Positions 40,715 through 54,900 of a DNA stretch of 64,000 nucleotides are shown here, in pieces; positions within the stretch are counted from its first letter, which is position 1; each line of letters starts with the position of its first letter. The DNA is taken from assembly GCA_963977015.1 (NCBI GenBank), contig CAXBMO010000018.1, positions 1-64,000 on the forward strand. Reading direction: 5' to 3'. The stretch is from an uncultured bacterium. GTDB lineage: Bacteria; Verrucomicrobiota; Verrucomicrobiia; Verrucomicrobiales; DEV007. The notes beneath the pieces are model-generated. The model did no database searches and was not told where the DNA came from. It was given only the letters and a program-made list of their open reading frames with translations. The position numbers were made by a program, and so were the translations under genes.

Positions 40715-41972
40715 CCCCGCGCGCCCCGGGCTGGCTTGTTCCGGCTGTTCAGGCCAACGCAACCGAATCACCCGACGATCCTGGCGGGCAAATCCCAACG
40801 GGATTTCGCATGAACAGCCCAGTGTTGCCGAAGGCTACGCTGGGATTACCGAGCCAGCACGAATCCAATCCTGAAGGGATTGCGGAAGGCTTCGGGCGTC
40901 CCTTCCGGGACGCATCCTGGCACCGTCTCTGATCCGGTGGTTGCGCTGCGCTTCACCGACCGGCTAGGTTCGGGATGAGCCTCCGGCTCTCTGCTTGACC
41001 CATCCGGCGAAGACGATGGATGGGAAAAGGACATGGTTGTCTCACGCTTTCAGCGCTCGCGAATGCGGGCATCTTGCCCCGGGGCTTTGCTCGCGTGGGC
41101 TCGCGCACCCCAGGCTGGCAGGTTCTGGCTTTCGGCCAGCTCTAGCCAGAGAACGAAACACCCAGCAGGAAGCCGGAAAAGAAATCGAAAACGTTGGCGA
41201 GGCCTGAAAGGCCGAAACACGCCAGCCCGGGGCACCGCCCCGGGTCAAAGATCCGCAAGAATCGAGCGCTGAAAGTGCAATACAATCGCTCTATGTCTCA
41301 CGCTTTCAGGGCTCGCTCGCGACTGCGGGCATCTTGACCCGGGGCTTTGCTCGCGTGGGCTCGCGCACCCCAGGCAGGCAGGTTCTGGCTTTCGGCCAGC
41401 TCTAGCCAGAGGGCGAAACACCCAGCAGGAAGCCGGAAAAGAAATCGAAAACGTTGGCGAGGCCTGAAAGGCCGAAACATGCCAGCCCGGGGCACCGCCG
41501 GGTCAAAGATCCGCAAGATTCGAGCGCTGAAAGTGCGAGACAATCGCTCTATGTCTCACGCTTTCAGCGCTCGCAACCACGGCCATCACCACCCGGGCTT
41601 TGCTCGCGTGGGCTCGCGCACCCCGGGCTGGCCTGTGATGACCTACAGGCCAACTCTCTGACTCGTGCTGTGAAGCGGACAGGATTGTCCGCACTCCTTG
41701 GCTGGCTCACTCCATCGCACCCCATCAGGCCACTGCGACCAAATCACCCGACGATCCTGGCGGGCAAAATCCCAACGGGATTTCGTACGAACAGCCCAGT
41801 GTTGCCGAAGGCTACGCTGGGTTTACCCGGGCAGCACGAATCCAATCCTGAAAGGATTGCGGAAAGCTTCGGGCATCCCTGCCGGGACGCATCCTGTCAC
41901 CGCGACTTTTCCGGTGGTTGCGCTGCGCTTCACCGACCGGCTAGGTTCGGGATGAGCCTCCGGCTCTCTGCT
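40715..41972. repeat. Nested REP/REPIN-like palindromic repeat cluster (A-B-B-B'-A)
   Basis: About 230 bp repeat A at 40766-40995 and 41742-41972; about 257 bp repeat B starting at 41038, 41294 and 41552 (partial); many GAAA-loop hairpins. Confidence 0.9.
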
Positions 41973-42024
41973 CGTTCCTTCCGTCTGCGGGGAAGCAGCC
42001 CAACCCTCGATCGGGGTTGCCAAT

Positions 42025-42717
42025 TTACGGCAACTCCGGAAGATCGCCTTTCACAGCGTCAATTTGAGCGCGGGGAGCCATTGCCTGCCCCTGGTATTTT
42101 TCGCGAGCCCAGGCAATTTGGGCTGGAGTAACTGCTCCCGACGAATTCCCGAAATTCATGCGGATGTAGGTAATAACGGCAGCAATCTGCTCATCGCTCA
42201 TGCTGGCGCCCCAGCCAACCATCGCGCCCGTGTGACGGGTCATATCGGGCACAACCCCATTCAAGACCAGGTAAGCAATGCGCTCCGTCGGCCCGTTGAC
42301 AAATTCAGAGCCGGCCAGAACCGGCGCCATGGGAGGAGTCATCACCATTGGCGGTCCTTTTCCTTCCGGGCCGTGACAAGCGACACAGTTCGCGAAAGTC
42401 GCGCGTCCAAGCGCTGCAAACTCTGCAGAAACTCCGCCTCCCGTGCTTGCGGCTTCAGAAGGTGCTGGCTTGGGCGCCGCTGGCTCGTCGGTCCCACTTG
42501 AAGCAGGCTTGGGTGCTGGCGTTGCCGCGGCAGTCACCGTTGCGGGAGCCGCTGCAGCTGCCGGTTCCTCAACCAGTTGCGCGTTGACGAACATGGCGTT
42601 GAGCAACCTTACGCCAAAAATGCCAAGCATGACGAAAAGGGCCAGCGCAGTGATTCCGCTTCCTGCGAGACCAAGCTTTCCAGCAAACGAGTTGGATGAA
42701 TGGGAGTCCTGAGACAT
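42025..42717 (-). CDS. Membrane-anchored mono-heme cytochrome c
   Basis: TM helix, Ala/Pro linker, 'CVACH', 'GAMVGW...SDEQIAAVITYIR..FGN'. Confidence 0.88.
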   Translation of the reverse strand: MSQDSHSSNSFAGKLGLAGSGITALALFVMLGIFGVRLLNAMFVNAQLVEEPAAAAAPATVTAAATPAPKPASSGTDEPAAPKPAPSEAASTGGGVSAEFAALGRATFANCVACHGPEGKGPPMVMTPPMAPVLAGSEFVNGPTERIAYLVLNGVVPDMTRHTGAMVGWGASMSDEQIAAVITYIRMNFGNSSGAVTPAQIAWAREKYQGQAMAPRAQIDAVKGDLPELP

Positions 42718-42951: not shown

Positions 42952-43431
42952 ATGGAATCGCACGAGGTTATTAAAGAAGCTCTCAGCAAAACGAGCCCCA
43001 AAGCGGTGGCTTCCGATTTGGGAGTCTCACTTTCCTTGGTTTACAAATGGGCGCAGCCGAATACGGAACTCGGTTCAGGAAGCCGAAATCCCCTCGACCG
43101 AATCCATGAGCTGATGAAGCTGACGGGGGAGGAGAAAATCATCCACTGGCTCTGCAAACAGGCCGGAGGTCACTATGTCCGCAATCCGGACGACCAGATC
43201 AACGACTACGAATATGCGCCGGCAACGAACGAAATTGTTCACCAATTTGCCGAACTGCTTCAGGTCATCACCCGCGCAGCGGCAGACAACACCATCACCC
43301 CGGACGAGTCGGATCGCATTCGTCAGGTTTGGGATGAACTGAAAATGATCACTGAAGGCTTTGTCAAAGCCTGCGAGGAACGACGGTTCGAAAGAATCCC
43401 GACCCCCGGCGGTCACCATCACCACGGATAG
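42952..43431 (+). CDS. Phage regulatory CII-like HTH protein
   Basis: N-terminal HTH 'PKAVASDLGVSLSLVYKW', 'NPLDRI', 'ADNTITPDE'; C-terminal HHHH. Confidence 0.6.
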   Translation: MESHEVIKEALSKTSPKAVASDLGVSLSLVYKWAQPNTELGSGSRNPLDRIHELMKLTGEEKIIHWLCKQAGGHYVRNPDDQINDYEYAPATNEIVHQFAELLQVITRAAADNTITPDESDRIRQVWDELKMITEGFVKACEERRFERIPTPGGHHHHG

Positions 43432-43488
43432 TGGTTCGGATGGGCCAGGCGGGAATGTCGTGCCTTCGACGTCTGCGGGGGAACTTCA

Positions 43489-43632
43489 GAGGGCACAGAC
43501 GGCATGTTTGCGATCGCCCAGGTCAATCCCCAAGGTCGCTTTCCGATAGATGGTAGGTCGTGTCGTTTTCATCAGCAGAGAGTCTATCAACCTCGTCCAG
43601 CGACGTGGCGCTCTGCCTTCTCATCTAATCTT
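43489..43632 (-). mobile_element. Truncated left end of the IS110/IS1111-type element (IR plus the first ~28 transposase codons)
   Basis: Identical except for one base to 48983-49126; joined to GGCTAAC-AAG at the end of cassette 3. Confidence 0.92.
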
Positions 43633-43633
43633 G

Positions 43634-44101
43634 TTAGCCTTTTAGTCTTCCGCGCCACCGGTTGTCGAGCTCTTGCCGGAATGCGGGAGGATCTCGATGG
43701 CTCAGCCACCATACTACGGTTTCATAGCGCTTCTTCAATTCATCGGGTAGATCTTCACAAAGTCTGTTCTTCGCTGCGTTTTGGGTCGCTTCAATTCCTT
43801 CGACTTCCGCCAGATACCATGGAAGCTCCTCCACGCTCACATCCCACTTCGGGATCAGGCGCCCAAGGTCACTGCCGATGTCGCCATCATAAGGTGGCTT
43901 GAGGAGCCAGAGAATCCCTCCCGCTACTTCCTGAGCAGCGAATCGATTCGTGTGATCGTCTTCGAAGACGCTCAGCATCGCATCCCGCAAGGCATCACTA
44001 TCGCAATTGCGCAGTCGGCGAACGAGATGCTGAATCGCTTGCCATCCATTCGGCCGATCTAGGGACGCGTATAACTCAGCTTTGATTTCGTCCGCGTCCA
44101 T
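43634..44101 (-). CDS. Integron cassette ORF 3, hypothetical protein (155 aa)
   Basis: Begins right after (GTT)AGCC; its stop lies inside the complementary inverse core GGCTAAC. Confidence 0.8.
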   Translation of the reverse strand: MDADEIKAELYASLDRPNGWQAIQHLVRRLRNCDSDALRDAMLSVFEDDHTNRFAAQEVAGGILWLLKPPYDGDIGSDLGRLIPKWDVSVEELPWYLAEVEGIEATQNAAKNRLCEDLPDELKKRYETVVWWLSHRDPPAFRQELDNRWRGRLKG

Positions 44102-44112
44102 TTTCTGAGGCT

Positions 44113-44421
44113 ATCAAGGTAGGGACACCGGTTGCCCGGCGCCCCCCTCACAGATCCCGGTGTGCGGATTTCCCGCACCGGGCTCCTCGGAGAATCGCGC
44201 ACGTTCACGCTTGGTTCTGAAGTCCTGTTGGCTCCCCATCGGATGATAAGATGGCAGGATTGCGCTCATAAGGCAAGGCGGGGTTGATAGGCGGGGTCGA
44301 TTTCTTCCACCACCCTCGCGGGCGGCAGTCGCCACACCGTGGTCCACCGGGCTAGCAGCTTTTCCCAGGTAAAGCTCTTGCGCTGGCTGCACCGATTGAG
44401 CCATTTGAAGATCAATCCCTT
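44113..44421 (-). mobile_element. 3' remnant of a group II intron (IEP C-terminus + domains V/VI)
   Basis: 'KWLNRCSQRKSFTWEKL' maturase tail (stop at 44266); DV GAGCCCGGTGCGGGAAATCCGCACACCGGGATC; DVI ending CCTACCTTGAT. Confidence 0.88.
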
Positions 44422-44877
44422 GACCTCCAGCACGTCGGCCGGGGGAAGAGCGCGATCCGTTACCTCGCCGCCTACGCCACCCGCAGCGCGTTTTCCGCCC
44501 AACGCCTGCTGGGCTACGACCAGAGCGGCAACCGCCTGCTCCTACGCTGGATCTCCAGCGAAACGGGCAAAGTCGGCACCCTGCACCTGGCTCCGCACGA
44601 ACTCATCCGGCGCTGGCTCCTGCACGTTCTCCCCAAAGGGTTCACCCGGATCCGGCACTACGGCTTCCTCAGCAGCGCCGCGCGCAAGAAGCGGCTCAAG
44701 ATTCGGCTCCTGCTCGGAGAACTGCGGCCCGAACCGGAACCCGTCCTTCCCGAGCACGAGGTGCCGAACTGTCCACACTGCGGCGGCACGCTGATCCACT
44801 GGTTCGACTTGCCTCGGATTTATCCGGTGCGAGGACCACCGCCATCAACATCACCATCCTTCGCCGCATCATCATGA
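44422..44877 (+). pseudogene. IS91-family (Y2 HUH) transposase C-terminal fragment
   Basis: My translation of a frame not in the ORF track: 'AIRYLAAYATRSA...ELIRRWLLHVLPKGFTRIRHYGFL...CPHCG'; 5' part missing. Confidence 0.85.
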
Positions 44878-45174
44878 CAATCGGCGCCTACCCACAAAGC
44901 CAAGTCATCCTAACACCTGCCAAATCGGGATGTCTTGGGAACGTGCGGACTCGTCCCGCGAAAAACCCGCAACTCGTCATCGCTCCTGCCTCCGCTGGGG
45001 GCTCGGACGCCACCAAGGCGCTGCCTTTCGCGTTGCTGGTGACGAATCGGCGGAGCGATTCGTCACGCAGGCCTGTGCGCGTCACTTTGCAGGATCGCCC
45101 CAGTGTCGCGTGGTCCGTAAGTCGCTCACCCTCAGCCTGAAATCGAAACCGCAAAGGAGGCATGAGGGCCCGTT

Positions 45175-47072
45175 ATCGGGTAGGAGGAGGGGTTGCCCCC
45201 TCCGTCCTCCCACACCACCGGGCATACGGTTCCGTACCACGGCGGTTCACGAAGTGGACGCATAGAAGCGAACCGAATCCAACAATCTAACAAGTCCACG
45301 TAAATCAAAGAACTTTCGGGGCATCGCCTTATTCAGATGCGAGGCTCCGGCATTCCACCACGGGCCCCGACCATTGTAGGCAGAGGCTGAAGCGCGCGCT
45401 TCATCAACCCCCAAGCCCATCAGCTTGCGCCGACGGGTTTTGGGCTTCTTCCACTGTCGCCAGAGTACACCTCGCAGCCTGCGCCGCAGCCATCGGTCCA
45501 GTTCCTCCAATACGCCCTTCACCTCGGCGTGCCGAAAGTAGGAGGCCCAGCCACGCAGCAGCGGGTTGAGATCCTCCACAATGAACCGCTCCAAATTCCG
45601 GCCGCGTCCGTGCCGAAGCAGGGCTTTGACCTTCTGGCGCAAGCGCCGCAGCGATTCGTTCGACACCTTGAGTCGTGCTTGATAGTGCATCGTTAGGCTG
45701 TAGCCAAGGAACGAACGGTTCCAAGGCCGGTCTACCGCGCTCTTTTCGGCGTTGACCTTCAACTTCAGATGTTTTCCCAGCCAGATGGTCAGGTTTTCGA
45801 GCACGCGTTCGCCTGCTGTCCGGGATGAAACGTAAATGTTCACATCATCGGCGTAGCGGCAGAAGCGATGCCCGCGTTTCTCCAGATCTTTGTCCAACTC
45901 GTCGAGTAGGATATTGCTGAGCAGCGGCGAGAGCGGGCCGCCTTGTGGCGTTCCCTGACGGCGCGGCCGCACGAGGCCGCCGTCCATCATACCCGCTTGC
46001 AGGTAGCGGCGGATCAGTCGCAAGACCCGTTTGTCCTTCACTTTACGCATCACACGGGCCATGAGCACGTCGTGGTTGACGTTGTCGAAGAACTTTTCCA
46101 GGTCCATATCGACGACCCAGCGCCGCCCGCCTCGCACGTGCTCGCGCATGGCTTTCACCGCCTGATGGGCGCTGCGCCCGGGCCGAAAGCCATAGCTGGA
46201 GTCACTGAACGTGGGATCGAAGATCGGGCCCAACACTTGCGCAGTCGCCTGTTGAATCAGACGGTCGAGCACCGTGGGTATGCCCAGAGTTCGTTCCCCC
46301 TTTCCTCCCGGTTTGGGGATTTGCACCTTACGTACTGCGTTTGGCCGGTATGTTCCGGCCAGCAGTTGTTCTTTGATTTCGGGCCAATGGATTTTGAGGA
46401 AGGGGCGCATTTGCTCCCAGCTCATGCCATCGGCCCCGGCGGCCCCTTTGTTGCGTTCTACCGCGTGGAGGGCACGCCACATGTTCTCACGATCGACGAT
46501 TGCCGCCATCAGGTCGGCTTCTTTGGATGGGTTTCCATCTGGGTTGGCCGGAACGCTCGTTGACGCCCCACATTCCAACAGCCCTGGCGGATTCTGTCCG
46601 TTACCTCTGCCGGGTGGGTCAGGCATCTCAGCCTTCTGTTCTGCATCTGCTTCGTTCATCGACAACTTGGTTGGTTAACCATCACACTTCATGTTCGGGC
46701 CTTCAGCCGGGTCGATCTCCGGCCTACTATGCCCTCTGCTGACTTCTGGCGCGTCATCCCAGCACCTCTCAATGCTGGTAGCACATGGCAACACGCCAGA
46801 TCTCCCCGGGTAATGCGCATTCACCTCCGCACTTATCCCCGCCACATATACATCAACACCTTCTGTGCAAGTATGGGACTTCGAATGTGTTGGCCTTCTC
46901 ATCCGGTATTGATGCCTCATATGTGATTTCTGTTCGTCGGGGTAGTGTTTTGCCTACGGCTTCCTTCAGACTCCACCTCACGGTGGACGCCCTTGCCGCT
47001 CAGCTAGCGGTTCCCCTTGCCGGGTCCGCGGAGGACTTGAACCTCCAAGTGAATGCGCCCTGCCGGGCGCAC
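45175..47072 (-). mobile_element. Group IIC intron, apparently full length (1898 nt)
   Basis: 5' GTGCGCCCGGCAGGGCGCA; short DV GAACCGCCGTGGTACGGAACCGTATGCCCGGTGGTG with CGC triad; 3' CCTACCCGAT; inserted just after a hairpin. Confidence 0.93.
45247..46665 (-). CDS. ltrA: Group II intron reverse transcriptase/maturase (no endonuclease domain)
   Basis: 'RTLGIPTVLDRLIQQA', 'SYGFRPGRSAH', 'DLEKFFD', 'GTPQGGPLSPLL', 'RYADD', 'LRGWASYF'. Confidence 0.95.
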   Translation of the reverse strand: MSMNEADAEQKAEMPDPPGRGNGQNPPGLLECGASTSVPANPDGNPSKEADLMAAIVDRENMWRALHAVERNKGAAGADGMSWEQMRPFLKIHWPEIKEQLLAGTYRPNAVRKVQIPKPGGKGERTLGIPTVLDRLIQQATAQVLGPIFDPTFSDSSYGFRPGRSAHQAVKAMREHVRGGRRWVVDMDLEKFFDNVNHDVLMARVMRKVKDKRVLRLIRRYLQAGMMDGGLVRPRRQGTPQGGPLSPLLSNILLDELDKDLEKRGHRFCRYADDVNIYVSSRTAGERVLENLTIWLGKHLKLKVNAEKSAVDRPWNRSFLGYSLTMHYQARLKVSNESLRRLRQKVKALLRHGRGRNLERFIVEDLNPLLRGWASYFRHAEVKGVLEELDRWLRRRLRGVLWRQWKKPKTRRRKLMGLGVDEARASASAYNGRGPWWNAGASHLNKAMPRKFFDLRGLVRLLDSVRFYASTS

Positions 47073-47127
47073 CAACAACCGATAGCTCTTGGGCTAAGCC
47101 CGGAAGCTATCTTTGGGGTTGTTCGGC
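47073..47127 (+). other. attC-like terminal hairpin of the IS91-like remnant, joined to the inverse core of cassette 2
   Basis: With the intron removed: GTTCAAC-AACCGATAGCTCTTGGGCTAAGCCCGGAAGCTATCTTTGGGGTT-GTTCGGC (RYYYAAC ... GTT, internal stem GATAGCT/AGCTATC). Confidence 0.6.
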
Positions 47128-47134
47128 TTGGTCT

Positions 47135-47527
47135 TCATTTGGGTGCGCGGTCCGGTTCGGGGTATCGCTGGGGAACCTGTGGATCATAGAAGCCACAGCC
47201 CAAGCTGTGTGCAACGTCTATAATCCTGTTCAGAACCTCGGAATGGTCGAGCAGCTTGTATCCGCAGGTAATAACAATCAAATGCACACTGTGCTTGTCG
47301 GCATGACAGAAGTTGACCTCGAATCCAGAATCAAATCCCCGCCAAATCAACTGGCCGTGATCTAATTCGATCTCTGGGAACGCCTTCTCGAAGCGGTCAA
47401 TCACATCCTCGCGGGGGAACGCATCAACTTCGGGATTCGGACGCTCCTGTGAGAGGGTATCCACTCTCATACCTGCATCGCCAACAAAAGGCTTCTTCTC
47501 GCGCCAAAAATAGAGGTCGTAGCTCAT
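47135..47527 (-). CDS. Integron cassette ORF 2, hypothetical protein (130 aa)
   Basis: Preceded by core GTTCGGC (47545-47539), 11 nt before the ATG; followed by the complementary GCCGAAC (47127-47121). Confidence 0.82.
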
Positions 47528-47538
47528 CTGATTTTTCT

Positions 47539-47658
47539 GCCGAACGTCCGAGGTGTGGCAGCGGCTACTGAGAGCGCCACCTCGAAACAGGGTTGAGTGT
47601 TGAAGTAAAGAGGGTCATGCCGACTCGGGGCGTGTAGCCGCTTGTCCACCACCGCCTT
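47539..47658 (-). other. attC site of cassette 1 (distal part; its R'' GCAGAAC lies at 49133-49127, on the other side of the IS)
   Basis: Reconstructed GCAGAAC-AAGGCGGTGGTGGACAAGCGGCTAC...GTAGCCGCTGCCACACCTCGGAC-GTTCGGC, an imperfect palindrome of about 127 bp. Confidence 0.85.
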
Positions 47659-47670
47659 CCATGAGAAGGC

Positions 47671-47998
47671 CATCAAGTAGTAACATCAAAATTTCAATTT
47701 TGCTAGGGTTTGTTGTTGGGCTGGGTGGTGGTGGTTTCAGGGATGAAGGTTGAATCGCGCTTCCATTCGCACTCGTTTGGTAGAGCCACTGTTCGCTGGG
47801 CTTCGGTGCATGTTTGGATCCGGTTCATCTCTGTTCTATCACAAAGAAAAGGACGCTGCTATCTTGTTCCCGCATTCCTAACTCATAAGGTTTGATGCTG
47901 ACGCATGGACCGCAGTCGCCCCAAAGGTTGGTTGCTGGCGTTAGCTTCGCAGTCGTCCAGGAAAGGCGTTCTTGGCTTTTGAAAATTCATGTCGGTTT
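47671..47998 (-). ncRNA. Candidate bridge/seek RNA region of the IS1111 element
   Basis: Non-coding region downstream of tnp with TGCG-GGAACAAG (target match, 47874-47863) and TGCG-AATGGAAG (donor match, 47771-47760); RNA boundaries unknown. Confidence 0.7.
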
Positions 47999-49066
47999 TC
48001 AGGCGCTGGCTAACTTCATCGGCTCATACGCGGTATCGTTCTTCCAAATTGTCATCATCACCACCGCCAACTTCCGGGCGGTCGCGACCACGGCTTTCTT
48101 CTTCGCGCCACGACCGCCTCGTTGCGCTAGACGCAGGCCGCGGATTTGCAGATCGCACTCTTCGCCAAACGGTCCCAACAGATATTGGGCGCTACCGACG
48201 AGGAGGCGACGCAGATAAGCGTTCCCACATTTGCTAATCCGCAGGGACTTGTCGACCCCGCCGGATTGATCGCGCCGCGGCACCAAGCCGAGATAAGCTC
48301 CCCCATCGCGAGGGTGACGGAAACGTTGGGGATCGCCAATTGTGAGGATAAAGCAAAGCGCCGTGATCGGCCCAATCCCACGGATCTCGCGCAAGCGTTG
48401 GCTCTCCGGATAGCGTTCCTGACACAACCGCTCAATCTCGCGGTCCAGTTCCCGGATCTTTGCCGTCATCGTGTCGATCACTTGCAACGAGGGCTCGATC
48501 ATGGCTAACACCTCAGCCTCGTCCCCCTGCAGTAACATTTGAGCCCGACGGGCGAAGCAGGTCGTTTTGGGCGATGGCAGGCGAATTCCCAAACCTTTGA
48601 GTGTGAAGCGCACCGCTGAGATCACGTCCACGCGTTGGCGCACCAGATTGTCGCGCAGCTTGATCTGAAGAAGGTCGCGCTGGGCCTGCTCGCTACCGTG
48701 CACAATGGGATGCAACAGACTCGCATCCACCCGAGCCAGCTTCGCCAACATCCGCGCATCCAACTCATCGCTCTTGCGTTCGTTTTGGTAGATCGCACGC
48801 AGTTTACGTGAGTTCGCCACAATGACTTCGCATCCCAACTTGTCGAGTAGCCGACTGATCCACAGGCTATGACTTCCCACCTCCATAGCGATCCGTGCTT
48901 TGGGAAAGCGCTTCACCAACATCGCCAACCGTTCTCTGGTATTGGGGATCGTCATTTCCGCGACAATCTCGCCCTTCGCGTTGAGGGCACAGACGGCATG
49001 TTTGCGATCGCCCAGGTCAATCCCCAAGGTCGCTTTCCGATAGATGGTAGGTCGTGTCGTTTTCAT
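47999..49066 (-). CDS. IS110 family DEDD recombinase/transposase
   Basis: RuvC-like 'GIDLG', 'MEVG', 'KSDELDA'; 'IRGIGPITA'; 'YLGLVPRRDQSG' with catalytic Ser; 'VATARKLA'. Confidence 0.95.
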   Translation of the reverse strand: MKTTRPTIYRKATLGIDLGDRKHAVCALNAKGEIVAEMTIPNTRERLAMLVKRFPKARIAMEVGSHSLWISRLLDKLGCEVIVANSRKLRAIYQNERKSDELDARMLAKLARVDASLLHPIVHGSEQAQRDLLQIKLRDNLVRQRVDVISAVRFTLKGLGIRLPSPKTTCFARRAQMLLQGDEAEVLAMIEPSLQVIDTMTAKIRELDREIERLCQERYPESQRLREIRGIGPITALCFILTIGDPQRFRHPRDGGAYLGLVPRRDQSGGVDKSLRISKCGNAYLRRLLVGSAQYLLGPFGEECDLQIRGLRLAQRGGRGAKKKAVVATARKLAVVMMTIWKNDTAYEPMKLASA

Positions 49067-49118
49067 CAGCAGAGAGTCTATCAACCTCGTCCAGCGACGA
49101 GGCGCTCTGCCTTCTCAT

Positions 49119-49724
49119 CTAATCTTGTTCTGCTTCTTTGGCTGTTATCGAATTACGTATGGCTGCCTTGAAGTGATCCAGCTTGCTGCCATTCCAGCTA
49201 AAGTCCCAATCTTCTGGGTCAAACTTCTGATTTAGCATTTTACCTAGTTCTTCATTATCTAGGCTTGCTGCCCAACGATTCTGCTCCTTCACGCACAGAG
49301 CCTCGATGCGAAGACGCTTATCTTCATCGTAGCGAATTCCTCGGCATTCAAGATACGCATGTGTCGCCTCATGGACTAGTAAGGCAGCATGAAAAGCGAT
49401 AGAAAACTCGACATCCCGTTCAGGCCAAGACTCTTCAAAGTTAATCGCGCAAGCATGCGCCCAGTGCCAATATTCAGCACCCGGCGTAGAAAGGCTCGTG
49501 TTCACGATCCAATCCAAATTCTTAGTTACGCGAGAAAACCTACGCGAATCTGTGTCCTTGAGAAGATTCAGTGAGGCTAGAATCGTGGTGTGAAAATCCA
49601 CACTTCTTCTCCTAACGTCCACAATCCGAATCGAATAGACCTCCTCGACTGTCATTGATGACCACAATCGGAGGGTGAGCTTGCGAGATACTATGCCGAT
49701 ACAGCGCCGTATGCTTCCGATCAT
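49119..49724 (-). CDS. Integron cassette ORF 1, hypothetical protein with HExxH zincin-like motif
   Basis: 'LLVHEATHAYLE'; lower GC than the flanks; bounded by GTTCTGC and GCAGAAC. Confidence 0.78.
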   Translation of the reverse strand: MIGSIRRCIGIVSRKLTLRLWSSMTVEEVYSIRIVDVRRRSVDFHTTILASLNLLKDTDSRRFSRVTKNLDWIVNTSLSTPGAEYWHWAHACAINFEESWPERDVEFSIAFHAALLVHEATHAYLECRGIRYDEDKRLRIEALCVKEQNRWAASLDNEELGKMLNQKFDPEDWDFSWNGSKLDHFKAAIRNSITAKEAEQD

Positions 49725-49733
49725 AATTTCTTA

Positions 49734-49760
49734 GCAGAACAGTATATTATTTCCCTTGAA
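49734..49760 (-). other. attI-like site at the head of the cassette array
   Basis: ...GGGAAATAATATACT-GTTCTGC: core matches cassette 1 R''; AT-rich upstream with no attC-like hairpin. Confidence 0.55.
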
Positions 49761-50314
49761 GGGCTGATATCCAAATCACGCAATTGGACCTAAATTCTTA
49801 AGGGATGTTGATCGTTTAATTTGGGAATTCATGATTTCTCTAAAAAGGTATGAGGATTATCAGTTCCTAGACTGCCAACCCAAGATTGCAGATGGACTAG
49901 CAATACGGGATATCGTCGTTTTCCTCAAGGAAGTTCCGACGTGGTGAGGACTTTTCTTGGAAGGGGCCGTTCTCATTTTTGATTTCCACTTCTCGACCAG
50001 GAATTATTGGGACATGGGGATGCGAAGACGGGCAGTTGCATTTGCATGCCATGAATCGTGGGATGGATGGACAGGAAGATGGAAGTTGGGGGCTTGGAAG
50101 TGACGGCGACAGGATGTCGCCGCTACCGCGTAGGCTGAATCCGGCGGTGAGAGTGGCTGCACCGGATTCCTCCGTGCGTTCGACGGAAAATGCCACCGAT
50201 CTCGAAACCCGGCGTTTTTGCAATCTTGCGACGTTGTATTGAAGGAAATCCGCGAAGTTGCGCCATCCTAACACGCTCATCTTCCTGCAAAATCTCTGAG
50301 CAGTTCATCCAAAT

Positions 50315-50377
50315 CGAAAACCCGTTTAGCTTAAACGAGAACCCGCTTGGCTGAGACGAAAACCTGGTTAGCTGAAG
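50315..50377. repeat. Three tandem 21-bp imperfect direct repeats
   Basis: CGAAAACCCGTTTAGCTTAAA / CGAGAACCCGCTTGGCTGAGA / CGAAAACCTGGTTAGCTGAAG. Confidence 0.75.
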
Positions 50378-50598
50378 GCGTTTTATCTATAACCAGGACC
50401 CGGGGACGTTTATCCGGTTCTCCTGTTTTCAGGGTTTGGTCGGGGGCGGGTTGCGTTTGGTTTGGTTCTTTTGGGCTGCCAGGGCGGCGATTTTTCGGGT
50501 GAGAGTTTGGGTGTGATGGGGATGCTCGGATTCGACTGCCAGTCGAATCTACGGGGCTGGTTCGGAATTTTGGCAAATTCCGCTACCTCCTCACTTCC

Positions 50599-51993
50599 CT
50601 AGGCAAGAATGTCGTGCAGCACGTTGCCGTGAACATCGGTCAACCGGACGTCCCGCCCCGCGTATCGATAGGTAAGGTCTTCGTGGTCGATCCCGACCTG
50701 GTGGAGGACGGTGGCCCAGAGATCGAAGATGGTCGCTTTCCCATCCACGACATGGTAGCCGTAATCGTCCGTGGCGCCGTAGGCGGTGCCACCTTTGATT
50801 CCGCCGCCAGCCATCCAAACACTGAATCCAAAGGGATTGTGATCGCGGCCATTTGAACCTTGGGAAAATGGGGTTCGGCCAAATTCTCCCGTGAAAATAA
50901 TGAGCGTTTCATCAAGCATGCCGCGTTGCTTGAGGTCCTTGATCAATGCGGCAATGGGCTGATCGACCTGTTGCCCCATGGCGCGATGTCCCTCTTCGAG
51001 CGCGCCATGTTGATCCCAGGGATTGGGGGCTCCGCCAGCTCCAAGCTTTTTGGTTAGGCACGAGAGTTCGACAAAGCGGACGCCGCGCTCCACCAATCGC
51101 CGTGCGAGGATGGCTTGCCGGGCGTAGGCCGCTTTTTCGGGATCGGGATCGTCGAGCCCGTAGAGCTTTTTCGTAATCTCGCTTTCGCCACGCAGGTCAC
51201 AGACTTCCGGCACGGCGGATTGCATGCGGAAGGCGGTCTCGTAGTTCATGATGGCGGCTTCCACATCTGCGTCGCCACCGGTGGATTTGGCGAAGCCCTG
51301 ATCGAGACGGTTCACAAAGTCCAATCTGGATCGCTGAATGGACGCAACCTGGGACGGCGCAACGTTGGGGATGGCCGGTGTGTTGTCTGCCTTGATGATG
51401 GAAGCCTGGTGCTGGGCGGGAAGAAATCCGCTGCTGAACAACCCAACGCCCCCATGAGGCGCGACGGCGTGCCCACTCTGCAGGACCACATAGCTGGGCA
51501 GGTTTTCGTTGGCAGAACCAAGCCCATAGCTCATCCAGGCACCGGCGCTGGGGTGGCCCAAAAACGGAAAGCCGGAATGGATCATGAAGTTCCCTTGCGC
51601 ATGCTCGTTCACGGGAGTGGTCATGGAGCGGATGACCGCGATGTCGTCGGCACAGTCTCCGATTTGTTCGAAGATCTCGCTGACGGGCAACCCGCTTTCC
51701 CCGCGATTGCGAAACGCGAACGGGCTGGGCATGATCTTGCCGTTGTTGTTGAACTGGGTCCGCTCAACCTTCATCGGCATCTCCTGGCCCGCTTCCTTCT
51801 TGAGCCTTGGCTTGGGATCAAAGGAATCGACGTGGGAGACGCCACCCGACATGTAGCAGAGAATGACGTTCTTGGCCTTGGCCTTTGGCAGGGCGGCGTT
51901 CGTATTGGGAGCCAGCAAACCTGACAAGGCGACCAAGCCGAACCCACTCGAGGCGCGGGCGAGGATCTGGCGGCGGGAGATTTCAGCGAACAT
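50599..51993 (-). CDS. DUF1501 domain protein
   Basis: 'SRRQIL', '[20 protein letters not shown]', 'FTGEFGRTP', 'GRDHNP'. Confidence 0.92.
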
Positions 51994-54900
51994 AGATGAA
52001 TTCCTTGAGGTTAAAGATGGAGTGGGCAAGATCGATCCAGGGTTGGTTTTCACCGACCGGTTGACCGTAGTCCCTGAGCTGGGATTCGAGGTCACGAATC
52101 CCGGATTCCAATTCCTGGAGCCGCGATGTTTGTGATGGGGTGAGGGCGGCGAGCACCTGGTTTTCGCTGACAAAACGGCGACCATGAGCCGAGGCGGCCA
52201 CTTCCTCCGGAGAGAGCGCCCGGTTAAAGAGTTTCGCCTCGTGGATGCGCCCCTTCAACATTCGATTCCCGCCGACTCCGGTTCCATGACGCAGACCGAA
52301 GACAAGCTGGGTCTGGCCGGATTTGAAGGGATTCAGGTTCGTCTGGCGATAGGGAGACCCATAGGGCTGACCATTGCGGTAAGCGCGGATGGTGCCGTCC
52401 GCATCATAGGCGATGGTGATGCAAACCGGCAGGGAGGAGGCGTCCGTTTCCGGCCCGCCTTCAAAGCTTCTCGTGCGCTGGTGATGATTGCTCCCAGCCA
52501 ACCAATGCCCTTTCTTCATCTCGGCGAAGACGATGGAATCAAAGACGGCCCCGTTGCTATCCTGAACGGTCATGACACCCCCACCACGCTGATCGAGATT
52601 CTCGAGCTGGACGACGACTTCGAGGGTTTTTTCCTGGAGATCCAGATTGAGCGGAGGCGTGCTGACGTAACCTCCGCCATCCAGAACCAAGGCGTCATCT
52701 TCGAGCCTTGCCGTTCCGTTGGCCTTGCCGTTCAGGTTCGCAAGTTCATCCCGAAGATTCCCGTCAAATTTCCAGTAGGCAAAGGGTTCGGGTCCAGCGA
52801 GAGCCGCTTCACCCTCGGAATTCAACGCGGCCTCCAACCGTGTCCGGACCGGTTGCTTGATGGATGCGACCTCGTGTTTCAGGCGCTGAATTTCCTCGAC
52901 CAACTGAGTCCGCTCGCGTTCCACGCCTTCGTAGCGTTGCTCCATGTCCTTCAGAAATTCGTTGGCTGCGCGGAGTTCGTCGGACGTCGGTTTTCTGCCC
53001 AGCGCCGTCGACCACATGTCCCCGATGCTTGGCGATTGACTGGCGAAGTTGGAAGCGGCGTTCGCAACAAACCGGTCATTCATCAGCATCAACGATTGAG
53101 CGGGCACGTTGGTAACATCGCGGCTTCCCTTGGTGGAGAACGGAACGGGTGCATCAAACGTCGTGAGAAAGGGATCCATGCGATTGCGGATCACGGAAAC
53201 GTAGACCGAGCGCCGATTCGAGGTTCCCGAGGCGGGAGGGCCGAAGAGCGACAAGTCCAGATTTCCCGACACGGCGAGGAACTGGTCGCGAATCGCCTCG
53301 GCTTCCAAGCGGCGGACATTGGCATGCGACAGGAGCCGGTTGGAAGGGTCCGTGGTTGCGGCGATCCTGCTGGGATGACTTGCCTGCTGCCAGGTTTCGC
53401 TCGTCACCAAAAAGCGGATCAACGATTTGAGCGACCAATCATCCTTCTCCTCAAATCGCGTTGCCAGGTAGTCCAGCAGCTCCGGGTGCGTCGGCTCCAC
53501 GCCCAGCCGCCCAAAGTTGTCCGTCGTCGAAACCAGACCGTTTCCAAACAGGTGATGCCAGATGCGGTTCACGATGACGCGACTGGTAAAGGGATTGTCG
53601 CGGCGGAACAGATCGTCGGCCAGTTCGAGACGCCCGCTGATGTTCGACTGATAAGGCGTGTCATCAATGGCATCGAGAAAGCGGCGTGAAACGGGCTGCA
53701 GTGGCTTTTTGTGATCGCCGCGATTATAGAGCGGTTGATCCACACCCTTCCATTCGGCCAGGGTCGGAATTCGGGTTGCCACGGGAATGGCCGCCTCCAA
53801 CTCGCGATAGCTCTCGATCAATGGTTTCGCCGTCGGCAACTTGCCGAGCTCGTTCGGTAGCATCCCGCGCTCCAACGCCTTGCTGAGGATCAGGCTCTCG
53901 GCGTTGGTGATGGTCTGGTCACGCCAGGCTTCGACGGCGTTCTTCAAGGCGGTCCGGTCGACCGATTGGCGAACGGGTTTCGGGCCGGGTTCCCCCTTCT
54001 TCACCAACCAGGCTTCGCGGATTCCAAACCAGGAACGATCCTTGTTCTTCACCAGGAGCGGCGCGTCGCGAGCGGTGGCGAGTTCGATGTGGATGTCGTC
54101 GCCATCCCAATAGGCCAGGTCGAACTTCAGCCAACGCCATCCGCGTTGCTTGTCGTCATCCTTCAGCCCTATGACCTTGTAGACCGTTCCGCTGCGAGGG
54201 TAGTTTTGAACGACGTAACGAGCCATGGCCTCCCCTCCCCCGCGAACGTGGAGATAAAGCTCATACGCGCCATCGAGATGAAGATCCGGCGACGTCAGGA
54301 CGGCTCCCGCTTTGTCGGTGATCAGGTTCGAGTAGGCTCCGGCCGGAAAGAGGTCGACAAGCGCATTCGCTCCCTGCGGCGCGATGGCGAATTCTCCCGG
54401 TTCCGACGGTTTCTGCGGCAACCCGTCGCCATACTGAAACCACGCTTCATAGGTTTCGGGATCCGACAAATCCCAATGCCGGCTTCCGCCCGAAATTTGA
54501 TGATCCACGACTTCCAGAGCGTCTCCGGACTCGGGAAGTTGCGCCAACCAATCGGACGCGATCGCGGCGCGAATCTCAGGCTTCAAGCCGGTCAAGGCCT
54601 CGCGATTCACCAGGCGTTTCTCAGGAAGATCAATCGCCGCGCTGGCGGGCCGGGTTGATCCCAGGATTCCAAAGAGCGCGTAGTAATCGGCCTGGCTGAT
54701 CGCATCAAACTTGTGGTTGTGGCAGCGGGCGCAACTTACCGTCAGCCCCAGAAATGCCTTGGTGAAAACGTTGATCTGATCATCGGTAAAGCGCACTTTT
54801 TCGTCCAAGGCATCGGTCGGAGCGAACCCGTGAAAAACCATGCGCCAATGAGCGGTCCCGATCAGTGATTCATTGATCGCCAGTTCGGGATTGATTCGTG

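Follow-up and report, generated by a model that had tools for sequence, protein, structure and literature searches.

Organization of the array

We analysed a 64,000-nt stretch of DNA (the window) from contig C18 of an uncultured bacterium of the Verrucomicrobiota (genome G000), which carries at positions 43489-49965 an integron platform whose integrase does not lie alongside. The assembly is a metagenome-derived draft of 51 contigs with 2% contamination. All array coordinates refer to the minus strand unless stated otherwise, and the array is read from high to low positions. It consists of three promoterless-looking cassettes on the minus strand downstream of an attI-type site. In minus-strand order we found the attI-type head, open reading frame (ORF) 3, its R'' core, an insertion sequence (IS), the rest of the ORF3-cassette attC site, ORF2, its R'' core, a palindrome, group II intron A, a piece of an IS91-family element, the end of a second group II intron (intron B), the four bases AGCC, ORF1, its R'' core and a stump of the IS.

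The array lies within a strain-specific insertion of ~7.1 kb (43464-50599) between a CII/YmfL-like gene (42952-43431) and a convergent DUF1501-type gene (50599-52185). A comparison with related strains had been proposed in an earlier note on this DNA. Synteny comparison with the congeners G001, G002 and G003 placed the homologues of the two flanking genes 10, 27 and 47 nt apart, versus 7.1 kb in the window, and the block was missing at the same site in all three. An imperfect direct repeat (43446-43463 and 50600-50617, 15/18 bases) flanks the block and corresponds to the 3' end of the DUF1501-type gene. A further shared TGGTTCGGA was observed upstream of this repeat on both sides of the block; together they could be a trace of its arrival.

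Cassettes and their boundaries

ORF3 (49119-49724) encodes 201 aa with an HExxH motif, ORF2 (47135-47527) 130 aa and ORF1 (43634-44101) 155 aa. No family was assigned to any of the three by Pfam or NCBIfam, and the nearest clusters of ORF3 in the Atlas were unnamed hypothetical proteins. The present stop codon of ORF3 falls within the IS, that of ORF1 inside the R'' core GGCTAAC (43639-43633).

The earlier note had described three minus-strand ORFs bounded by GTT cores and their complements. This was confirmed with exact 7-mers for two cassettes and with a 4-mer for the third, for which the GTT is lost. The R'' core of the ORF3 cassette, GCAGAAC (49127-49133), is the exact complement of the R' core GTTCTGC at the head (49740-49734). 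Likewise, the R'' core of the ORF2 cassette, GCCGAAC (47121-47127), exactly complements R' GTTCGGC (47545-47539), and its GAAC is the GTTC abutting the IS91-family end. At the ORF1 cassette, AGCC (44109-44112) stands directly after the 3' end of intron B at 44113; these are the distal four bases of R', they complement the GGCT of R'' GGCTAAC, and only this 4-mer is complementary to that core. The window does not contain the GTT of this R', which was lost along with the 5' part of intron B.

Boundary complementarity was thus found for all three cassettes, and the chance of three 4-mer matches beside fixed AAC/GTT cores is ~(1/256)^3. Genome-wide, 23 R' sites were examined (6 heads plus 17 matches of the attC model described below). 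For 9 of them, including five consecutive boundaries on contig C36, the exact 7-mer complement stands at an occupied R'' or where the arm of the next attC has its 5' edge. The remaining 14 lie at the end of an array or contig, have a degenerate GTT core or are occupied by an intron. Since the bases after GTT complement the bases before AAC of the cassette's own attC, the boundaries demonstrate that the cassettes were inserted by integron-type recombination at G|TT.

Homologues of the three proteins were rare. Among 120 other genomes of the family, one was found for ORF1, none for ORF2 and two for ORF3. The earlier note had asked whether these ORFs occur in relatives as ordinary chromosomal genes, and their rarity there decides this question in favour of cassettes. 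One of the ORF3 homologues, in G057, has an antisense intron end downstream; no attC could be defined beside it.

The attC repeat family

The attC family was assembled by iterated nhmmer and pattern searches of the contigs of G000. Its members are imperfect palindromes of ~126 nt, which start with NNNNAAC-AAG and end with GAC-GTTNNNN; a short form of ~60 nt has the same ends. Nine aligned members were used to build a covariance model (R1). RNAalifold analysis of the nine sequences yielded 20 pairs in a long interrupted stem, 13 of them with compensatory changes. Paired cells amounted to 92.1% compared to 75.1% in shuffles, and pairs changed on both sides to 13 compared to 6.4. None of 500 shuffles reached the observed values, and sliding the partners by 1-3 columns left 1-4 such pairs. 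Single unpaired columns were found on the R''/L'' arm, the arm on which attC sites carry extrahelical bases, as described in excerpts of PMC4889954.

The search of the genome for similar attC sites, also proposed earlier, gave 17 R1 matches, of which 9 are training rows; six lie on C36 in one orientation. In the window the model detected the rest of the ORF3-cassette attC, comprising the L'' arm, loop, L' arm and R' GTTCGGC (47539-47657; 106 bits, E 4.4e-24), which the IS separates from its R''. Among 41 related genomes, 34 had R1 matches. The integron integrase model TIGR02249 (cut-off 265 bits) was exceeded in 22 of the 41, and all 22 also had R1 matches, while none of the 7 genomes lacking R1 matches had an intI above the cut-off. 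R1 matches were located a few kb from intI in G029 and on G008:C37, G039:C71, G023:C144 and G001:C21. That all intI-positive relatives have matches, several of them beside intI, is strong evidence that the repeat family represents the attC sites of the integrons of this clade.

One attC was said to be fully reconstructable, and this was borne out. The remainder in the window is 91.5% identical over 118 nt to an uninterrupted, collinear attC of a congener (G002:C332:4636-4762), where the empty site reads AAC-AAG-GCGG. Rejoined in silico after removal of the IS, the window attC folds with R'' paired to R'. By a rough tally, ~11-12 of ~27 recognisable attC positions in the genome are occupied by elements, so that the occupation of all three in the window is notable, not extraordinary. 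A further attC-family site (C36:38209-38400) contains ~70 extra bases right after AAC-AAG, the insertion position of the IS; these may be the footprint or remnant of another insertion.

The attI-type head and the integrases

An attI-like head of 27 nt had been proposed in the earlier note. The head is real and conserved up to GTT, and its extent is ~230 nt (49734-49965). It stops exactly at GTT (49740-49738), after which the cassette-specific CTGC follows. Using BLAST, MAFFT and a second model (R2), seven copies were identified in G000 and two in the congener G002, in unrelated contexts; among the 41 genomes the head was present in these two only. The other copies in G000 are on C41 (two), C36, C19 and C6, and a diverged seventh was found by a sequence-only model. 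In all 8 aligned copies the conservation runs to ...ATACTGTT and then ends. At 4 of the 6 G000 heads examined, the R'' of the first cassette exactly complements GTT and the four bases that follow it. The head on G002:C302 is located ~570 nt from a divergent intI reading frame (286 bits). As conservation ends at GTT, variable cassettes follow and one copy stands divergent from intI, the head appears to behave as an attI site.

A repeat element of ~155 nt (1542-1696), the ends of which are inverted, interrupts the head-linked intI of G002:C302. This element also occurs at G000:C18:120069-120220, with 26 matches listed at 75-84% identity on 21 contigs of G000. The head itself contains an 18-codon ORF (49832-49776), the ATG of which is invariant in all eight aligned heads; its frame is kept in six G000 copies, and both G002 copies have a 4-nt insertion. 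A promoter scan of the head found 1 sigma-70-like site versus 1.0 expected. Behind the second G002 head a cassette (G002:C332 1979-4106) with ORFs of 397 and 306 aa was observed, the first ATPase-looking.

No intI was found in the window, as the earlier note had stated. The six TIGR02249 matches of the genome lie on C1, C2, C15 and C31 and none on C18. One of them exceeds the cut-off, the integron integrase at C1:216131-217426, an uninterrupted frame of 431 aa with 291 bits. No intI stands beside any head of G000, and no intI remnant near these heads came up in a tblastn search with the head-linked type of IntI from G002. Contig C1 has no R1 match.

The IS1111-type element

Between R'' and the rest of the ORF3-cassette attC a complete IS1111-type IS of 1,468 bp is inserted (47658-49125), with a transposase gene at 49084-47999. 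The protein matched DEDD_Tnp_IS110 and Transposase_20 of Pfam and NF033542 with 230 bits (cut-off 140 bits). Subterminal inverted repeats are ATGAGAAGGC / GCCTTCTCAT; the repeats are perfect over 10 bp and have 7-bp and 3-bp extensions. Downstream of the transposase gene follows a non-coding region of 340 nt, which contains GAACAAGAT at 47869-47861. Excerpts of PMC11187229 describe the IS1111 family by subterminal inverted repeats of ~11-13 bp, 7-bp and 3-bp extensions and a long downstream non-coding region, and the window IS belongs there by these features. It is the only complete copy in the assembly. A second copy is represented by a stump (43489-43631) of the first 143 bp, 99% identical and at the same position after R''-A, and the array breaks off inside it at 43489. 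The claim that an IS1111 element sits twice after R''-AAG was therefore correct, once as a complete copy and once as a stump of 143 bp.

All four left ends of the IS in G000 follow NNNNAAC-AAG. Relatives with transposases 50-74% identical were found in other Verrucomicrobiota assemblies. Their readable left junctions (n=15) showed AAC followed by AAG or CAG in 11 cases and other sequences in 3, with 1 unclear. The 13 right ends listed (12 loci and the window) all read ...CATGGAAG, including five copies with a CAG-type target. Since the CAG-target copies share the same right end, the comparison of AAG- with CAG-type targets places a two-base AG core at both junctions. We also considered AAG as a 3-bp target duplication and rejected it, because CAG-target copies still end in GGAAG.

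A motif ~90-140 nt into the 3' non-coding region mirrors the left junction. It reads AACAAGA in 5/5 copies with an AAG-type target and AACCAGA in 5/5 with a CAG-type target, and neither form occurs in the 3/3 copies with other targets; a second, probably incidental, motif match was seen in two IS loci. This covariation of motif and target is what the seekRNA model predicts, and the IS may accordingly be guided by RNA. In the related IS loci all eight R1 matches are on the transposase strand. Both in the window and in the related loci, the IS lineage thus has the orientation of the cassettes. A DNA search of 40 related genomes found no copy of the IS, and the transposase was less than 40% identical to anything among the best 5,000 PLSDB records.

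Elsewhere in the genome, a repeat-bearing sequence with GGTCAG...CTGACGGCTGTTACCTGACGG motifs cuts off an IS copy at C19:~71033 and an IS91-family remnant at C4:~216690; it is probably the end of another mobile element.

The IS91-family remnant and intron A

At the R'' of the ORF2 cassette an IS91-like remnant had been recognised, and the searches agreed. On the plus strand, two pieces of an IS91-family element (44439-45174 and 47073-47120; PF04986 Y2_Tnp, E 4.6e-21) are split by intron A and abut GAAC. They comprise 736 nt and a 48-nt palindrome. The remnant holds the C-terminal ~150 codons of a Y2 transposase (~44431-44874, profile positions 99-180 of 183), the 3' non-coding region and the subterminal palindrome beside GTTC. 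The HUH part and the other end of the element are absent, and no other Y2 transposase match was found in the genome. A homologous end free of an intron is located at C4:216687-216985 beside GGCAGAAC. A third end at C11:159708 stands beside ACCGAAC and has an internally deleted intron at the same point. Hence, three IS91-family ends abut GAAC; read on the strand of the element, the gene-distal end abuts 5'-GTTC. The palindrome at 47073-47120 was also considered as the own attC of the ORF2 cassette. This was rejected, as the copies on C4 and C11 continue into the same 3' non-coding sequence in different GAAC contexts.

Intron A (45175-47072) is a full-length group II intron of 1,898 nt, which starts with GTGCG and ends with GAT, in keeping with the group II ends 5' GUGYG and 3' AY, and contains a reverse transcriptase (RT)/maturase ORF (46665-45247). 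It matched the Rfam D1-D4 families with 141 and 71 bits, RVT_1 and GIIM of Pfam, and TIGR04416 with 419 bits. An E-value scan with Rfam over 44000-49200 gave nothing beyond three matches at gathering score. The intron is inserted after ...GGTTGTTG of the IS91-family palindrome, where the earlier note had placed it. Both boundaries are fixed by the empty-site homologue on C4, and public contigs in 2 runs join 45174 to 47073. Because the same palindrome is free of an intron on C4, intron A has the IS91-family palindrome, and no attC, as its host. The view that four element types occupy attC sites thus holds for three of the four, with all three attC positions being occupied.

At G000:C17:826-2840 an antisense group II intron adjoins the 5' edge of a site of the attC family, which is the textbook orientation in a genome that also has the sense-oriented introns; the RTs of this intron and of intron A share 45.6% identity. 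A clean R'' could not be reconstructed at this intron.

Intron B at the R' crossover

A second group II intron had been assigned to R', and it is present there as a 3' fragment only. The fragment of intron B (44113-44438; 326 nt) comprises the end of the RT ORF and domains V and VI (Rfam RF00029, 40.2 bits, ending at 44113). It joins the shortened IS91-family element at ~44438; a similar join of an IS fragment to an intron B fragment was found on C36. Missing from the window are the middle of the ORF2-cassette attC, the R' GTT and the intron's 5' part.

Copies of intron B were found on C36, C11, C28 and C6. Intact 5' ends (GTGCG...) are present on C6, C28 and C36:11942 and on G002:C302, each directly after the GTT of an attC R'. 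The four 3' ends precede AGCC, AGGC, AGTC and CGGT, with a matching R'' downstream in three cases. From the intact 5' ends after GTT and the matching R'' beyond the 3' ends it follows that intron B inserts directly behind GTT, before the next base, on the strand that is sense to the cassettes. The site is one to two bases from the integrase crossover, and the insertion leaves GTT followed by the intron's own GTGC. The non-ORF part of intron B is estimated at ~730 nt. Like the IS, introns A and B are both oriented in the sense direction of the cassettes.

The earlier note had proposed that the elements converge on one DNA structure. As the IS motif matches AAC(A/C)AG, the IS91-family remnant abuts GTTC and intron B always follows GTT, the elements appear to read short sequences at fixed positions instead.

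A proposed history of the locus

Taking these data together, we read the array as an integrase-less integron platform, all three attC sites of which have since been struck by mobile elements, with a probability of about 0.82. The cassettes would have been captured first, followed by the insertions of the IS, the IS91-family element and intron B. At the ORF3 and ORF1 cassettes the IS1111-type element would have inserted at AAC-A|AG, behind R'' and before the L'' arm, guided by a 3' non-coding RNA that carries a copy of the target AAC(A/C)AG. The IS91-family element would have landed with its transposase-distal end on the GTTC of the ORF2-cassette R'', and the hairpin-seeking intron A would then have entered its palindrome. 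Where the ORF2 and ORF1 cassettes meet, intron B would have occupied R', with GTT on one side and the four bases after it on the other. Later deletions between the interiors of the elements may have taken most of the IS91-family element, the middle of the attC and the 5' part of intron B, and also everything past the second IS copy. An R''/R' stem would no longer form at any of the three attC sites, so that the cassettes should not be excisable singly. The intact head could still take up cassettes if a compatible integrase acted in trans. "Frozen", the earlier term, is a conjecture: the head of the array is intact, and an IntI gene lies elsewhere in the genome.

Several points weigh against this reading. 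R1 was trained on the genome's own repeats rather than being a generic attC model. The window contains only one attC detectable by the model, and the two others were deduced from the junctions of the elements and from R'' cores. In minimum free energy the rejoined attC did not surpass shuffles (z -0.1), compared to z -1.7 to -2.6 for two natural copies. For intron A, Rfam did not find domain V even at E 0.1, and domains V and VI were read by eye. The IntI on C1 is only 33% identical to the head-linked type, so that it may or may not act in trans. Public sequencing contigs from this region are short, with lengths of 180-1,210 nt; not one extends across an entire element, and several bins lack cover in some runs. 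The order of events, the inability to excise and the guidance by RNA, finally, are steps that we infer.

With a rather small chance of being true, the attI head with a few cassettes could be a dispersing module that moves without an integrase of its own and is served in trans. This idea draws on the seven plus two heads in unrelated contexts, on the split gene at the sole intI-linked head and on the direct repeat flanking the block. If it were true, integron platforms of Verrucomicrobiota would multiply and move without carrying an integrase. Their attC sites would be farmed by a sense-oriented RNA-guided IS and by an intron whose GTGC restores an R'-like core, and both IS and intron could ride along with cassettes instead of simply breaking them.

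Alternative explanations

An array that is not frozen at all, being a working satellite platform served in trans by the IntI of C1 with the elements as tolerated passengers, seems unlikely. The introns would splice from the sense transcript, and the GTTGTGC left by intron B would let an occupied attC still recombine, with the intron as the leader of the next cassette. An uninterrupted intI frame in the genome (431 aa, 291 bits), the intact head in seven copies, the sense orientation of the IS and both introns and the GTGC of intron B directly after GTT at 3/3 intact G000 sites all agree with this. However, the ORF3-cassette R'' is 1.47 kb away from the rest of its attC, the attC of ORF2 lacks its middle and that of ORF1 is cut off. 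The intron B of the window, as a 3' fragment, cannot splice, and the divergence of the C1 IntI from the head-linked type and the lack of an R1 match on its contig point in the same direction. That the nested arrangement is partly an artefact of the assembly, with repeated IS and intron copies misjoined and a simpler real locus, we regard as quite improbable. It would be in keeping with the number of contigs and the contamination of the draft, with IS and intron copies elsewhere that stop at contig ends or in other repeats, with the short public contigs, none of which spans an element, and with one public run that joins 43497 to 48960 beside the same flank with 13 other letters between. Against a misjoin, the AGCC behind the intron fragment has its match in the GGCTAAC located 473 nt downstream, the IS stump occupies the same AAC-AAG position, and a parallel join of an IS to an intron B fragment exists on C36. 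In addition, zero-difference public contigs cross 43489 (43200-43518) and the right end of the IS (47475-47688), with only ~30 nt on the far side. The join of 43497 to 48960, observed in run X2, connects the CII-like flank to an IS position, and a related genome seems to carry a differently shortened IS.

Class C introns target terminators, and the genome is rich in other small repeats. One could regard the repeats as repetitive extragenic palindromic (REP) sequences or terminator-like palindromes, the ORFs as ordinary genes and the elements as simply targeting hairpins, and REP-targeting relatives of IS1111 are known from excerpts of PMC11187229. We give this explanation hardly any weight compared to the integron platform. 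It does not fit the cassette-specific complementarity of the bases flanking GTT and AAC, the one-orientation arrays beside intI in relatives and the full co-occurrence with intI, or the linkage of a head to intI. The empty site in all three congeners and the rarity of the ORFs likewise speak for cassettes rather than ordinary genes.

Comparison with known systems

Already known are arrays without an integrase, IS1111 elements and group II introns that target attC sites, and the preference of IS91 for GTTC. Parasitism of attC sites is thus not new, and what stands out here is its unusual density and unusual orientation. As far as excerpts of PMC4889954 describe attC-site clusters that have no integron integrases (CALINs), the window resembles them in having cassettes of unknown function and attC sites with no intI nearby, and in an IntI elsewhere in the genome, as in about half of the reported CALINs. 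In contrast to CALINs it keeps an attI-type head, one of seven in the genome, and with one detectable attC in the window the published tool, if strictly run, might not report it as a CALIN. The earlier designation as CALIN-like is therefore right as to cassettes without a neighbouring integrase, while the attI head makes "integrase-less integron platform" the more exact term.

The IS shares several features with the IS1111-attC group, to which excerpts of PMC3001079 and PMC11187229 assign ISPa21, ISPst6 and ISKpn4: the transposase is of the DEDD type, the inverted repeats are subterminal, a long non-coding region lies downstream of the gene, insertion takes place at one fixed position near the R'' end of attC, and a non-coding segment matches the target. 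The published elements are described in PMC3001079 as antisense to the cassettes, whereas the window IS is sense.

Group IIC-attC introns such as S.ma.I2 (excerpts of PMC3001079 and PMC7923331) home to attC sites at a stem-loop beside a T-rich motif, and the antisense relative on C17 sits likewise at the 5' edge of an attC in this genome. The published introns, as these excerpts describe them, enter the bottom strand at R'' (TTGT/T) in antisense orientation, whereas intron B is sense at R', and intron A, also sense to the cassettes, lies in the IS91-family palindrome. Closer to intron B are two cases in excerpts of PMC7923331, both sense and at the attC 3' edge. UHB.I2 belongs to group IIB and lies right downstream of an attC, oriented like the cassettes; the other is a class C intron on the top strand in Enterobacter cloacae. 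They are single cases there, whereas the junction of intron B (GTT, GTGCG) was found at four independent sites in two genomes.

For the IS91 family (IS91, IS801, IS1294), excerpts of PMC13181058 report a Y2/HUH transposase, no target duplication and a palindrome end abutting 5'-GTTC or 5'-CTTG, and GTTC beside oriIS as the target tetranucleotide. The window remnant is alike in its fragment of a Y2/HUH-type transposase, its gene-distal subterminal palindrome and the end abutting 5'-GTTC. It differs in being a remnant only, with no HUH domain and no intact copy in the genome. We met no description of a repeated use of attC R'' GAAC by IS91-family elements, as seen at the three ends here, in literature searches that were not aimed at this point. 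A narrow literature search found no description of a multi-copy orphan attI, of a sense IS1111 lineage with natural covariation of guide and target at R'', or of an intron homing to the sense-strand R' crossover at several sites.

The integron sites of Verrucomicrobiota thus appear as landing pads for at least three unrelated chemistries of mobile elements within 6 kb. The IS motif shifts from AACAAG to AACCAG with the target; this natural covariation bears on the seekRNA/bridge-RNA idea, and the two forms lend themselves to reprogramming. Homing of an intron to the sense-strand R' crossover would be an insertion point different from that of textbook attC introns. In this clade generic tools may overlook platforms that are occupied or orphaned, and an attC model and an attI sequence are now at hand for it. 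How integrase-less arrays arise and spread is a testable question posed by the orphan attI heads with their several copies.

Other repeats near the array

Outside the array, a stretch of ~1.3 kb without convincing ORFs (40715-42030) was found to consist of units of ~250-350 nt, which are ~91% identical to each other. Related copies occur on many contigs, including C28, C4, C16, C11, C32, C21 and C29. A short piece of this repeat family is also present at 50518-50587, at the right edge of the inserted block.

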